NCBI RefSeq assembly: GCF_000027125.1
Contig: NC_017626.1
DNA from: Escherichia coli 042
Lineage (GTDB): Bacteria > Pseudomonadota > Gammaproteobacteria > Enterobacterales > Enterobacteriaceae
DNA length: 64,000 nucleotides
Reading direction: 5' to 3' (one strand)
A model generated the notes under the pieces. The model ran no database searches. It worked only from the letters and a program-made list of their open reading frames with translations, and was not told the origin of the DNA. The first letter of the stretch is position 1. Each line of letters starts with the position of its first letter. A program made the position numbers and the translations under genes. Of the stretch, positions 20,161 through 23,961 are shown in pieces.

Positions 20161-20164
20161 AATT

Positions 20165-20215
20165 GTTAGCCGGATAAGGTGCTCGCACCACATCCGGCTA
20201 CAATGCCGGGCGCAA
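20165..20215. repeat. REP (repetitive extragenic palindrome) element
   Basis: GCCGGATAAGG...CATCCGGC palindromic unit between ubiG and yfaL. Confidence 0.55.
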
Positions 20216-20220
20216 AGCAG

Positions 20221-23200
20221 CTACCATTTCACCGTCATCGACAAAAACCCTGCCGTCTGGGCAAAATCATCACTCCCTTTCTGCCACGCCACGCTGCCGC
20301 GCAGCGAAACTCGCTGACTGATATTGCCCGTGACTCCCACTTTTATTTCACCCCGTTGCTTCACCGCATCGTCACTGATAGTGCTGCCATCTTCTTCAAT
20401 TTCCGTCGCATGGGGATCGTGATAATAATTCAGATCTAATGTTGGTATGACATGAACAGCGGTACGCCATTCGCTGTGTAAACCCAGCCGCGTTTGAATA
20501 TCATCACCCTGCGATTGTGACACGCGCGCATGGTTAGCGGCGGTAAAATCATCCTGCTGCACGCCCTGATAAATCACCTGCGCCTGCGGTTCAACCACCA
20601 CACCACGCCCCGGTAACCACTGATACCCCGCTTCCAGCGAGGCGATAATCCCCGACGAATGGTAATGATCTGTGCCATCGTCTTGTTCGGAAACATCATT
20701 GTTAAACCACGCGTATTGCAGCCAGCTATCCAGCCAGGCCCCCTGCTTCTGATTACCGTGCTGAAACCAGCTTGAGGTCAGACCAACGGCATAACCGTGG
20801 TTCTGGTTATCGGCGCGAGTTCCGGTCATATTCGAGCGGCTGTCGCCCTGGTTATCACTGTAGCCACCAACCGCCCCAAGCATCCACTCGCCATCCGCGC
20901 CCCAGCGCCCGCTAAACAAGTCGCCGCTAAGCTGCACCGTAGAAGTGTCTTCATGCTGAGCCAGTTGCCCCGCTGCTGTGTAATGATAATTTCCGCCGAT
21001 AACACGTAAATTCAGCGTCTGACCATCGCCACCAGCGTGATCGTGTCGCTCCATCACAAACGCCTGATTTGCCGCCCGCAGGTTATTAAAATATCCACCA
21101 ACTTTGGCATTCAACACCGGCTGGTAGGCAGGCGTAGGGTCCGGGGCCGGGTCGGGTGTTGGATCAGGATCGGGAGTCGGGTCTGGATCAGGTGGCGATG
21201 GTGGCGTTACTTCTTGCGATCGCAGATACCAGTCGTTGTTATCTTCCACCAGCGTGTAGTCATACGCTCCCATATTGACGTAGCCGCTGCCTGCCAGACT
21301 GAACTGCGCATTGTTTTGAAACTGCGTGGGATCAGCTGCGAAATCAACCACTTTAATGCCTGTCGATGTCGGCTCACCAATCCCTGTAATGGAGTTAACC
21401 ATCACAGTTGTGTTGCCAGCAGTATTACCGTTCATCACCAATTGATCGCTTACCGAGTCATCGCCGTTTAATTCGCTATCGAGCAGTAGCGTACCACCGC
21501 CGGTATAATCACCGTTTACCGTCAGCGTATCGCCAGCGACGCCATTTTGCAGGCTAACCGCACCAGACGTATTGGTCAGATTGCCATTAACCGTCACGTT
21601 GGAAAGATAAGTCAGGCTGTCAGTTTCAAGGTTGGTATTAAGCTCGCCTGTCAACGTCACGCCATCGGTGGCATTCACCAGCGTCCCATCGCCGTTAAAC
21701 AGTGAGGCATTAAGGGCGACGGAAGTATCCTGCCCGGTCAGGCGCAAAACCGTACCATCGCTGATGTCGATAGTGCCGCTGGAAGTAGCATCAATTGACT
21801 GAATATCCTGATCCGCGCCAGTCTTGAATGTTGCCCCGTCACCGACCCACAGCGACGAAGCATAAGGGAAGATATCCGCAACATCACCTTTCAGGGTGCC
21901 TTCTTCGACACGTACCGCCGACTGCGTTGTACCGCTGGCGGTCAGTTCCAGCGTACCCGCCCCCGTTTTCGTCAATGTGCTACCCTCATCCTGATGCTGC
22001 CCGCTGCTGTCAGCCATCAGTGCGCCCCACTGCGTGTCTACCCCCGCATCAACTGCCACTTCACCGTCGGCGCGCATTTCAATATCACGCCCGTGACCTG
22101 CTGCCTCTGAACGAGTATCAACGTCAGCGGTAATTTCCATCTCACTTTGTTGTTGGCTATCAGTAAAGATGAGCTGACGGTTTTCGTCGGTATTGCCAAG
22201 CTGCGAGTTGTCGCTCACCACCAGCGTACCGGAAGCGATTTGCGTGGTGCCCAGGTAACTATTATTGTTTGCCAGGCTAACCAGCCCGTCGCCCGCATCG
22301 ATCACCACGTAGACGCCATCTTTCTCGTCGCCGCCGATATGCAAATTGTCGCCACCTGCGAGATCCACCACATCCTGACTGCCGATAACCGTACCGCCGC
22401 TGCCGCTGACTGCAAGGCCATCGTTGTATGATGTGCCGCTCTGCCAGGTGGCGAAATCAGAGAGATCAAGCACGCCGCCGTTTAACACGATCGACTGCGG
22501 ATCGTCCTGGAGAGCGGCAAGATCTGCCGCGTCGCCTTCCAGCGTAAGCACCGCGCCATCATCAACGACTATATCGCCAGTTAGCGCCATCGACTGAGCC
22601 CCTGCCAGCACGTAGCTGCCGTTTTGCGCAATGGTGAGCTGACCAGCACCTTCGATGGTGCCAGCAAAACTGCCCTGATTAACAGTAACGTTGCCACCAG
22701 CATCGATATTTAAAGTGCCATTCTGAAAGCCCATCAATGCGTGCACAAAAGTTTGTTGGGTCGAGCCAACGTTTAGCTCAGCCTGATTCTGATACTGATC
22801 AATACTCCCTATCGTCAGACCGTAGCAGTCTTGCGTATCGTCCTGGCAATGCGTATCGCCGACATTCATCAGGGAGTTGCTGCGGCCCAGGGTAACTTCA
22901 CCGTTTTCAATCTGCATCTCGCCAGTAAAGTCATTGTTATCTGCATTAAGTACCAGATCGCCGGAACCTGTTTTGGTGATTAACCCGGTACCAGCAATAG
23001 AGTCAACAGCTCCGTCATTCTCTGTATTGCCGATAACCAGCGTTTTTCCGTCGGCAATATCAAAGGTAACGTCACTTAAGCCGAGATACATAAAGCCACC
23101 CGCCGCAGTGGAAGGACCATCTCCATAGCCTGCTGCGCTATTGTTCTCATCCACTAAAACACCGTTGTTCTGGCTGTAGCTGTCATCAACTGAAATATCA

Positions 23201-23961
23201 ATAAGATAGGGAGCCGTCACGCTATTGGTATAAATCGCCCCGCCATATCCCTCAGCAGAGTTATTTGTAAATGCGGTGTTATTTATTATTGTGAAACCTG
23301 ACGGATGCGTGATATCGCTATTATTATCGGTGACATCGATTGCCCCTCCATCGCCATCACTGTAACTTGTTGATGTATATGCCTGGTTATTGTCAAAAAT
23401 AACTTCATTTAAATAGACGTCATTGTTGATGGTATAAATTGCACCACCTTTGCCGTCATTAGCGATGTTATTGCGAAACACGGCGTTAGTGACACGTAAA
23501 TCGACGACACCGGTATCGTTAGTACCAGAAGAATAGATTGCGCCACCATAGCCACCTGCAACGTTACCGGAAAAAATAACATTAGTAAGATTCAGCGTTG
23601 AGTTTTCTTTAGCAAATATTGCCCCGCCGTTATTATATTCTCCTGAGACAGTATTATTGGCAAACAGAGTCATTCCAGTTTCATTTTCTGGCGATAGAGA
23701 AAACTCCGCTCCTTGTTGCAAAAATACGGCCCCACCGCTGGCGTTATTAGTCATATCCGAAAAAACCAGCCATTGCCCATCGGCGATGCTCCAGTCCTGC
23801 GTAAAGCTTGAAAGGCTTTGCCTGCTGGCGTGACAACTCGCTTTGATATCATATCCCTGGCATAAATCAATGGCCGCCGCGACACCGTTAGCAGAGAAAA
23901 GATACGCAATCATTGACGGGAGTAAAGATAAATACTCCTTGCGTAGAAAAATAATCCGCAT
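20221..23961 (-). CDS. yfaL: AIDA-I-type autotransporter adhesin YfaL
   Basis: 1246 aa; signal peptide, glycine/asparagine-rich passenger, PD/PT repeat linker, C-terminal beta-barrel ending in W. Confidence 0.9.
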   Translation of the reverse strand: MRIIFLRKEYLSLLPSMIAYLFSANGVAAAIDLCQGYDIKASCHASRQSLSSFTQDWSIADGQWLVFSDMTNNASGGAVFLQQGAEFSLSPENETGMTLFANNTVSGEYNNGGAIFAKENSTLNLTNVIFSGNVAGGYGGAIYSSGTNDTGVVDLRVTNAVFRNNIANDGKGGAIYTINNDVYLNEVIFDNNQAYTSTSYSDGDGGAIDVTDNNSDITHPSGFTIINNTAFTNNSAEGYGGAIYTNSVTAPYLIDISVDDSYSQNNGVLVDENNSAAGYGDGPSTAAGGFMYLGLSDVTFDIADGKTLVIGNTENDGAVDSIAGTGLITKTGSGDLVLNADNNDFTGEMQIENGEVTLGRSNSLMNVGDTHCQDDTQDCYGLTIGSIDQYQNQAELNVGSTQQTFVHALMGFQNGTLNIDAGGNVTVNQGSFAGTIEGAGQLTIAQNGSYVLAGAQSMALTGDIVVDDGAVLTLEGDAADLAALQDDPQSIVLNGGVLDLSDFATWQSGTSYNDGLAVSGSGGTVIGSQDVVDLAGGDNLHIGGDEKDGVYVVIDAGDGLVSLANNNSYLGTTQIASGTLVVSDNSQLGNTDENRQLIFTDSQQQSEMEITADVDTRSEAAGHGRDIEMRADGEVAVDAGVDTQWGALMADSSGQHQDEGSTLTKTGAGTLELTASGTTQSAVRVEEGTLKGDVADIFPYASSLWVGDGATFKTGADQDIQSIDATSSGTIDISDGTVLRLTGQDTSVALNASLFNGDGTLVNATDGVTLTGELNTNLETDSLTYLSNVTVNGNLTNTSGAVSLQNGVAGDTLTVNGDYTGGGTLLLDSELNGDDSVSDQLVMNGNTAGNTTVMVNSITGIGEPTSTGIKVVDFAADPTQFQNNAQFSLAGSGYVNMGAYDYTLVEDNNDWYLRSQEVTPPSPPDPDPTPDPDPTPDPAPDPTPAYQPVLNAKVGGYFNNLRAANQAFVMERHDHAGGDGQTLNLRVIGGNYHYTAAGQLAQHEDTSTVQLSGDLFSGRWGADGEWMLGAVGGYSDNQGDSRSNMTGTRADNQNHGYAVGLTSSWFQHGNQKQGAWLDSWLQYAWFNNDVSEQDDGTDHYHSSGIIASLEAGYQWLPGRGVVVEPQAQVIYQGVQQDDFTAANHARVSQSQGDDIQTRLGLHSEWRTAVHVIPTLDLNYYHDPHATEIEEDGSTISDDAVKQRGEIKVGVTGNISQRVSLRGSVAWQKGSDDFAQTAGFLSMTVKW

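Follow-up and report, generated by a model that had tools for sequence, protein, structure and literature searches.

A length-variable proline-rich linker, probably a spacer, in the YfaL autotransporter of Escherichia coli 042

Results

Between its passenger and its translocator, the autotransporter YfaL of Escherichia coli 042 carries a proline-rich stretch which is in all likelihood an unstructured spacer of (PD)2PT-like units, varying in length in frame by slippage and holding the whole of the size difference from the K-12 protein. The DNA analysed, here called the window, is a stretch of 64,000 nt from contig NC_017626.1, in which the open reading frame (ORF) list and the translation place the yfaL/ehaC coding sequence at 20221..23961 on the minus strand (1246 aa plus stop), encoding a classical autotransporter adhesin of the AIDA-I type. 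The protein matched the NCBIfam equivalog NF007285 'YfaL/EhaC' with 2740 bits (cut-off 1459), residues 1-1246 being aligned to model positions 1-1250, and the window ORF showed 100% identity to the yfaL gene annotated in E. coli CB6837. The gene order in CB6837 is nrdAB-ypaB-yfaL-ubiG-gyrA, and the ORFs on either side of yfaL in the window fit this position between nrdA/ypaB and ubiG/gyrA. Judged from its sequence, the window ORF is YfaL/EhaC. The Pfam domains Chlam_PMP, PATR, AC_1 and Autotransporter, the AlphaFold2 (AF2) model and the Foldseek matches gave the architecture of a type Va autotransporter; in addition, a precomputed match to Pfam 'Pertactin' (PF03212) lies in the C-terminal passenger region, and the N-terminus MRIIFLRKEYLSLLPSMIAYLFSANGVAA resembles the 28-aa signal peptide given for K-12 (PMC13101318). 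The gene yfaL as a whole is a mosaic built by recombination, and its passenger is highly divergent; the window allele, with 95% nucleotide identity to K-12, is a mosaic of other alleles. YfaL has been placed in Group 8 in a review of autotransporters, where the proteins of this group are described as anchored in the outer membrane (PMC9289746). Its over-expression promotes adherence to abiotic surfaces (PMC4321836), and the fragment 786-1250, which includes the linker, is enough for surface display of foreign proteins, the fusion being found at its full size of 80 kDa in the outer-membrane fraction (PMC7138890).

The linker, defined by the translation, low pLDDT values and its length polymorphism, comprises aa 918-944 (VTPPSPPDPDPTPDPDPTPDPAPDPTP) and is encoded at 21130..21210 on the minus strand. 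Its core is the 25-residue motif PPSPPDPDPTPDPDPTPDPAPDPTP (aa 920-944; 21130..21204, minus strand), which had been picked out in the initial annotation as a dipeptide repeat between passenger and translocator. The string is indeed encoded there, on the minus strand, although the coordinates then assigned to it, 21135..21205, deviated by 5 nt at one end and by 1 nt at the other; its placement was borne out by the Pfam matches on either side, AC_1 at aa 794-904 and the Autotransporter beta-domain at aa 985-1224. Prolines, mostly in alternation, make up 14 of the 25 residues of the motif, compared to 14 in the other 1221 residues of YfaL (1.1%; 28 in the whole protein) and a maximum of two in any other 25-aa stretch (binomial tail approximately 3e-17). 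At the DNA level, Tandem Repeats Finder detected a weak tandem repeat at 21152..21189 (18-nt period, 2.1 copies, 80% matches, score 48), and perfect direct repeats in the window allele reached 9 nt at most. As the DNA repeat is this weak, the periodicity of the linker is mainly one of the protein, with synonymous codons scrambled between the units. An antisense ORF of 144 aa (21037..21471, plus strand), Gly-rich over the repeat, gave no Pfam match at E<=1 and was set aside as the mere complement of the Pro codons.

The structural setting of the linker was derived from an AF2 model covering aa 781-1246 (mean pLDDT 84.5). On its N-terminal side lies the autochaperone or junction domain, which forms the C-terminal end of the beta-helical passenger (aa 794-904; 21250..21582, minus strand; Pfam PF18883 AC_1, E=1.7e-18) and is matched by the IcsA autochaperone structures 3ML3 and 5KE1; predicted strands run on past AC_1 up to WYLRS (aa 910-914), with model residue 134 corresponding to aa 914. 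On its C-terminal side follow a predicted alpha-helix, the putative pore-plugging segment of the translocator (aa 952-966, model residues 172-186; 21064..21108, minus strand), and the outer-membrane beta-barrel (aa ~982-1246; 20224..21018, minus strand), the latter assigned from Pfam PF03797 (aa 985-1224, E=1.4e-33), TIGR01414 and the strands at model residues 202-465. The linker is thus placed after the final autochaperone strand (aa 914) and before the helix (aa ~952). Residues 920-944 (model residues 140-164) had pLDDT values below 50 and were assigned as coil by DSSP, with no secondary structure in the model. The linker is therefore predicted to be unstructured, a low pLDDT meaning only that AF2 assigns it no fixed structure. 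Superposition of the model on the AIDA-I transport unit (4MEE) led to a target-normalised TM-score of 0.91 and an rmsd of 2.1 Å, the sequence match to the same structure had E=3.5e-35, and Foldseek matched the barrel to those of AIDA-I, EspP, BrkA, Hbp and NalP.

The initial annotation had proposed that linker length differs from strain to strain, and a comparison of the repeat across strains agreed with this: instead of one length everywhere, six length classes were found in 59 genomes. Measured from one conserved anchor (WYLRSQE) to the other (AYQPVL), the linker was 19, 23, 25, 27, 31 or 33 aa long in E. coli alleles and 35 aa long in Escherichia sp. KS167_9B. Relative to the window allele, 40 of the 59 genomes were longer by 12 nt and four by 18 nt, 12 were shorter by 6 nt, and one genome each had the same length or was shorter by 12 or 24 nt. 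The 31-aa linker, which is the K-12 length, made up about 68% of the sample, the 25-aa linker 20% and the 33-aa linker 7%, these frequencies being those of an evenly spaced sample (59 of 5419 genomes) from a collection biased towards clinical isolates. The 27-aa allele of the window is rare (25 of the 5419 genomes). A 475-nt region with this linker was found without gaps and with at least 99.8% identity in 25 complete genomes, which stem from various hosts and laboratories. When 11 full-length alleles (1242-1252 aa) were aligned, all length differences fell into the linker, save that B2/F-type alleles have a single indel of 2 aa in the passenger; over the 3765 alignment columns, with alleles up to about 30% apart in nucleotides, the linker and this one 6-nt site were the only places with indels. 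Every indel in the intact alleles examined was a multiple of 6 nt and hence in frame. Linkers of 23, 27 and 33 aa occurred on nearly identical flanks (at most 1% divergence), and the 31-aa length was common to very divergent alleles (K-12, O157 and B2/F). Within the repeat, replacements among D, E, G and A were observed, as well as P to Q in the O157 allele and S to L.

It had also been suggested that the linker may explain why the protein falls short of the approximately 1250 aa of K-12 YfaL, and the difference of 1246 versus 1250 aa was wholly accounted for by linker indels. The K-12 protein (NF007285) shares the gene, the locus, the domain order and the linker motif family with that of the window. 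Its linker has three PDPDPT units and ends in PDPEPTP, whereas that of the window has two and ends in PDPAPDPTP. Compared to the window, K-12-type YfaL (1250 aa, strain NBRC 3301) has one additional PDPDPT (+18 nt) and lacks a PA (-6 nt), a net difference of 12 nt or 4 aa, and the full-length alignment revealed no further indel between the window and K-12-type alleles. The 4-aa shortfall of the window protein lies entirely in the linker.

DNA alignments allowed a closer view of how such differences may arise. Against the alleles of strains 1190, TCM3e1 and CH10982, the window allele showed a clean gap of 18 nt (GATCCTGATCCCACGCCG), the remaining linker being identical. The longer alleles hold two copies of GATCCTGATCC 18 nt apart, of which one is left in the window at the junction zone of the deletion (27-aa versus 33-aa alleles; 21161..21174, minus strand), and an 11-nt direct repeat bounds the 18 nt in the 33-aa alleles. 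The window allele can thus be derived from a 33-aa allele by removal of exactly 18 nt flanked by 11-nt direct repeats, which is a signature of slippage. Similarly, the 19-aa allele of SMN197SH3 corresponds to the 25-aa allele of MB06173 minus 18 nt between perfect direct repeats of 20 nt, with one further synonymous base difference in the linker. Length changes probably arise by slipped-strand mispairing or by short-homology recombination between imperfect direct repeats of 6 to 18 nt, and the window allele would have been generated when a 33-aa allele lost one 18-nt unit between its two GATCCTGATCC copies.

A protein search with the C-terminal 466 aa retrieved mostly YfaL fragments of E. coli and Shigella and few full-length orthologues, as well as about ten distant homologues, on which the comparison across genera and the AF2 alignment were based. 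Homologues with 26-34% identity, including those from Budvicia and Citrobacter, all had at this place a low-complexity stretch of another sequence, proline-rich or acidic, which directly follows an invariant W-Y-L motif and precedes the helix start, conserved as RPE.G.Y. The AIDA-I transport unit (4MEE) is homologous in its autochaperone end, its pore helix and its 12-stranded barrel but has no proline repeat here, the YfaL linker being aligned to gaps and to a short non-repetitive stretch. In TibA, an AIDA-I-type autotransporter of E. coli, a proline-rich domain (residues 627-677) lies between the junction region and the membrane domain, a position equivalent to that of the YfaL linker (PMC3835316). 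The TibA segment is about twice as long as the YfaL linker and is likened to it by position. A functional role of the TibA domain was reportedly described by Cote & Mourez in 2011. Pertactin of Bordetella varies mainly in its repeats R1, (GGXXP)n, and R2, (PQP)n, which, like the YfaL linker, are short proline-containing repeats with a copy number that differs between isolates (PMC3279416). The repeat motifs themselves differ from that of YfaL. Pertactin serves as a vaccine antigen, and shifts of its alleles in the population are documented; we know of no comparable shifts for YfaL. With its placement, its proline-rich short-period repeat and its in-frame variation in copy number between isolates, the YfaL linker shows the traits of the TibA and pertactin type. 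A literature search on YfaL combined with autotransporter and proline-rich found no paper on the YfaL linker.

Discussion

For the linker we infer a spacer function, a location at the cell surface and a polyproline-II geometry. The acidic X-P dipeptides, arranged in (PD)2PT-like units, would tether the beta-helical passenger and its autochaperone to the helix inside the 12-stranded barrel. From the topology of autotransporters and the display of foreign proteins by YfaL 786-1250 (PMC7138890), the linker would be expected at the cell surface, immediately beyond the barrel. Since a linker of alternating prolines cannot form a helix or a sheet, the properties of such peptides suggest an extended, protease-resistant stalk, which at full extension, with about 3.1 Å per residue, would reach some 6-10 nm. 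Such a stalk may keep the passenger off the barrel and the LPS core, and constraint on its exact length would be loose. Most of the length variation is probably neutral or nearly so, and the YfaL linker is an ordinary feature of an autotransporter.

An adaptive origin of the variation, with diversifying selection acting on the linker so that the stalk matches the depth of O antigen or capsule, or so that an exposed immunodominant repeat escapes antibodies, as has been suggested for the repeats of pertactin, would fit the six length classes, the recurrent independent indels on nearly identical flanks and the residue replacements inside the repeat. A mosaic gene with a highly divergent passenger is also what would be expected for a surface antigen, and pertactin varies chiefly in its repeats (PMC3279416). 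Nevertheless, we consider such selection unlikely, as the 31-aa linker is dominant and recurs in very divergent alleles (K-12, O157 and B2/F) from strains whose O antigens differ or are missing, lineages keep their alleles, as seen from the 475-nt region common to 25 genomes, and work on YfaL has mainly relied on over-expression. That the series from 19 to 35 aa represents a selected polymorphism of stalk length or epitope, its variants being fed by recurrent 18-nt slippage on identical backgrounds, is in our view rather improbable. The linker might instead be the site at which passenger and translocator are separated, by autoproteolysis or by an outer-membrane protease, with release of the passenger; it lies about where some autotransporters are known to be cut, between passenger and pore helix, and the YfaL passenger has been called 'cleaved' in a generic way and without data (PMC4321836). 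Such processing is very improbable, however, given that the YfaL(786-1250) fusion was recovered at full size in the outer-membrane fraction (PMC7138890) and that the Group 8 proteins, to which YfaL belongs, are anchored in the outer membrane (PMC9289746). Furthermore, the linker lacks all residues that are conserved at known intra-barrel cleavage sites, is positioned upstream of the helix and not within the barrel, and varies among alleles in both sequence and length. Alternating X-Pro sequences are, besides, poor substrates for proteases.

A repeat tract within the gene of a surface adhesin also calls to mind a contingency locus, in which frequent changes in the repeat would switch YfaL on and off (phase variation), and several database proteins are in fact frameshifted in or just before the linker (P0031, P0036, P0037, P0063, P0071, P0085, P0103 and P0111). 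These products, mostly from draft or metagenome assemblies, may reflect sequencing errors in C-rich runs, while the one frameshift traced in a complete genome (FDN-9) lies in a T-run at about nt 197, outside the linker, and 25 unrelated isolates have exactly one and the same tract. Since indels in the intact alleles come in multiples of 6 nt, which keeps the frame, and the DNA repeat is imperfect (80%, 2.1 copies, longest perfect repeat 9 nt), we regard a phase-variation switch in the linker as exceedingly improbable. Finally, the short repeat of the window could be thought of as a K-12-length repeat that collapsed during assembly or sequencing. Repeats are prone to such collapse, and short-read assemblies of Shigella sonnei do break inside the linker, but the 27-aa allele recurs in the 25 complete genomes of varied laboratory and host origin, and neither the extra PA nor the linked flank SNPs relative to K-12 could be created by collapse, which leaves this explanation a negligible chance.

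The 4-aa difference from K-12 is therefore real, wholly contained in the linker and not an error, although it carries little weight for the wider biology. The length of YfaL (1242-1252 aa) is a property of the allele, and differences within this range should not be taken for truncation or misannotation, while the linker repeat poses a minor hazard in short-read assembly. For users of the YfaL 786-1250 display anchor, natural and tolerated linker lengths from 19 to 35 aa are available. If linker length were indeed under selection, YfaL would offer a simple natural system for the distance to which an adhesin projects from the outer membrane.

The proline-rich linker of YfaL and its predicted structure

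The yfaL ORF (1246 aa; window 20221..23961, minus strand, from the ORF list) was matched over its whole length by the NCBIfam equivalog 'AIDA-I family autotransporter adhesin YfaL/EhaC' with 2740 bits (cut-off 1459), and the annotated yfaL of E. coli CB6837, flanked there by nrdAB/ypaB and ubiG/gyrA, is 100% identical to it. Translation led to the proline-rich motif PPSPPDPDPTPDPDPTPDPAPDPTP at residues 920-944 (window 21130..21204, minus strand; G-rich triplets on the plus strand). The PD/PT repeat of the initial annotation is therefore present as encoded, with its coordinates (21135-21205) 5 nt and 1 nt off. Pfam matches in YfaL comprise Chlam_PMP and PATR repeats, AC_1 as autochaperone domain (aa 794-904) and, as beta-domain, Autotransporter (aa 985-1224), and as the linker follows AC_1 and precedes the beta-domain, its proposed placement between passenger and translocator was correct. 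The 25-residue motif contains 14 of the 28 prolines of YfaL, the remainder of the protein being 1.1% proline and any other 25-aa stretch having at most two, an enrichment that is not due to chance (binomial tail ~3e-17). The underlying DNA is weakly repetitive (TRF: 18-nt period, 2.1 copies, 80% matches, score 48), and all four Pro codons are used in the linker (CCA 5, CCT 4, CCG 3, CCC 2), unlike in gyrA and nrdA of the window with mostly CCG. Mixed codons and a weak DNA repeat thus indicate that it is the protein sequence that retained the periodicity, with drift at synonymous positions.

AF2 prediction of aa 781-1246, with distant homologues included in the input alignment (mean pLDDT 84.5), led to beta-strands as far as WYLRS (aa 914), residues 920-944 with pLDDT <50 and without secondary structure, a helix at aa 952-966 after the linker and barrel strands from aa 982. 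Superposition of the model on the crystallised AIDA-I transport unit (4MEE) gave a target-normalised TM-score of 0.91 and an rmsd of 2.1 A, and the YfaL linker falls opposite gaps in AIDA-I when both sequences are aligned (E=3.5e-35). Other autotransporter barrels could also be superposed. Because the N-terminus of the pore helix exits at the extracellular side in solved autotransporter structures, the linker would be located at the cell surface, between barrel mouth and beta-helix base.

Length variation and its origin

yfaL was found in 5425 of 5426 complete E. coli genomes at 80-100% nucleotide identity, i.e. very polymorphic, with only 15 genomes reaching a whole-gene identity of at least 99% to the window allele. 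Alleles for comparison were taken from 19 strains, and when the proteins of 11 full-length alleles (1242-1252 aa) were aligned, all indels were in the linker, except for one 2-aa passenger indel of B2/F-type alleles. With the conserved WYLRSQE and AYQPVL as anchors, linker length is 27 aa in the window allele (aa 918-944; window 21130..21210), 19 aa in SMN197SH3, 23 aa in W46, Ec-U18 and NRZ14408, 25 aa in MB06173, D8 and APEC E19025, 31 aa in K-12, O157:H7, ATCC 25922, ST648 and PS131, and 33 aa in CH10982, d1-58, 40EC, FDAARGOS_448, strain 1190 and TCM3e1; a relative, Escherichia sp. KS167_9B, has 35 aa. When a 475-nt linker-centred query was used and rows were sampled at even steps through the ranking of 5419 genomes, 59 full-length rows showed net lengths relative to the window of +12 nt (n=40), -6 (n=12), +18 (n=4) and 0, -12 and -24 (n=1 each); the K-12 length thus predominates (~68%). 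Linker length thus varies between strains as anticipated, over 19-33 aa in E. coli and in six net-length classes among the 59 sampled genomes. The window length is rare, the 475-nt region being present at at least 99.8% identity in 25 genomes, and is unlikely to be an artefact.

K-12-type YfaL has 1250 aa (NBRC 3301), as has the NCBIfam model in positions, and residues 786-1250 are cited in PMC7138890. Compared to the window allele, K-12 carries an additional PDPDPT (18 nt), PA (6 nt) is missing from it and no further indels occur, so that the linker accounts exactly for the suspected 4-aa difference.

The window linker corresponds base for base to the 33-aa linkers of strains 1190, TCM3e1 and CH10982 minus one clean 18-nt gap (GATCCTGATCCCACGCCG), and the 18-nt unit is flanked in the 33-aa alleles by two copies of GATCCTGATCC, 18 nt apart. 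In an independent case, removal of 18 nt from the 25-aa allele gives the 19-aa allele, except for one synonymous linker base, and the removed unit is flanked by a 20-nt perfect direct repeat. Both losses leave the typical footprint of slipped-strand mispairing or of deletion between short homologies. As linkers of 23, 27 and 33 aa occur on flanks at most 1% divergent from the window, linker indels are recurrent relative to point substitutions. A phase-variation switch is unlikely and was rejected, because every length change in the intact alleles examined is a multiple of 6 nt and the same tract is common to 25 unrelated isolates.

yfaL as a polymorphic gene and irregular assemblies

yfaL, which ranks among the more polymorphic core genes, is a recombination mosaic. 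The window allele resembles W46 over nt 1-2400, switches near nt 2400 to a K-12-like segment (nt 2400-2700) and, with a second switch at the linker, is W46/CH10982-like past it. B2/F-type alleles differ from the window allele by ~30% of nucleotides over passenger nt 150-2250 vs <10% in the barrel. yfaL is occasionally inactivated, by IS5 in strain 0H25 (genome hit H27) and by loss of 1 nt from a T-run at ~nt 197 in FDN-9 (L012), where it is annotated as frameshifted. The yfaL-ubiG spacer (window 20161..20220) has 60 bp with one REP-like palindrome (GCCGGATGTGGTGCGAGCACCTTATCCGGC), as in W46 and CH10982, vs 127-140 bp with two inverted REP-like units in K-12, O157-like and ATCC 25922 strains (L002 4054-4180, L006 4060-4198, L009 4054-4193), which is a polymorphism in REP copy number.

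An 11-nt inverted repeat (CCATCGCCACC / GGTGGCGATGG; window 21023..21033 and 21191..21201, starts 168 nt apart) pairs the PPSPP codons of the linker with GGDGQ codons downstream. Contig JBBUSC010000016.1 opens with a foldback (inverted duplication; L026 1-420) that has this repeat pair as its junction; it is probably an assembly artefact and yields a called protein that starts with MGSGSGVGSGSGGDG (P0017). In hundreds of Shigella sonnei short-read assemblies, with linkers starting PPNPNPTPDPDPT, yfaL contigs end raggedly within or just before the linker and resume at ...CGGCCCCTACGCCTGC (L019-L025; P0012, P0013, P0023-P0113), and upstream contigs begin at a fixed point (aa ~303), some with foreign N-terminal sequence, which suggests that the gene is IS-disrupted. 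Protein P0043 from a 5-kb metagenome contig joins a B2-type passenger and linker start (…PDPDPTPDPEPTPDPGDGD) to an unrelated Asn-/Lys-rich C-terminus replacing the barrel, which could reflect either a contig chimera or a genuine fusion. Products P0031, P0036, P0037, P0063, P0071, P0085, P0103 and P0111 are frameshifted in or just before the linker and terminate soon after (…LTSRC); they are either candidate pseudogenes or the result of false indels in the C-rich tract.

A proposed spacer at a conserved position

Homologues at 26-34% identity, two of them named Budvicia and Citrobacter by source, retain the invariant W-Y-L motif and the RPE.G.Y helix start. The stretches in between are low-complexity, quite unlike each other and of very unequal lengths: PDPEPTPDPDPT... 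repeats of ~50 aa, PEPPQPQEPDQPQEP..., long DPDD.SDVTPV repeats and, once, a proline-free stretch rich in Gly/Asp. What is conserved is therefore a 'slot' for an unstructured spacer and not its sequence.

Beyond its demonstrated location, amino acid composition, predicted lack of structure, length polymorphism and traces of slippage, the linker may act as a stalk, because alternating prolines would block helix and sheet and favour an extended, protease-resistant conformation. At ~3.1 A per residue it would reach roughly 6-10 nm over the observed length range, keeping the folded passenger apart from barrel and LPS core, and its length would be only loosely constrained. A role as processing site is unlikely, and adaptive length tuning or antigenic variation, although possible, is unsupported and seems quite improbable to us.

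YfaL has been classified as a Group 8 adhesin anchored in the outer membrane (PMC9289746). Its over-expression promotes adhesion to abiotic surfaces (PMC4321836), and fragment 786-1250 serves as surface-display anchor (PMC7138890, PMC13101318). In pertactin, the proline-containing repeats (GGXXP)n and (PQP)n vary in copy number (PMC3279416). No paper on the YfaL linker itself was found in the literature searched. The initial observation is thus confirmed and its interpretation supported: the linker, although apparently undescribed there, is of a known kind, an ordinary length-polymorphic proline-rich linker of a classical autotransporter.
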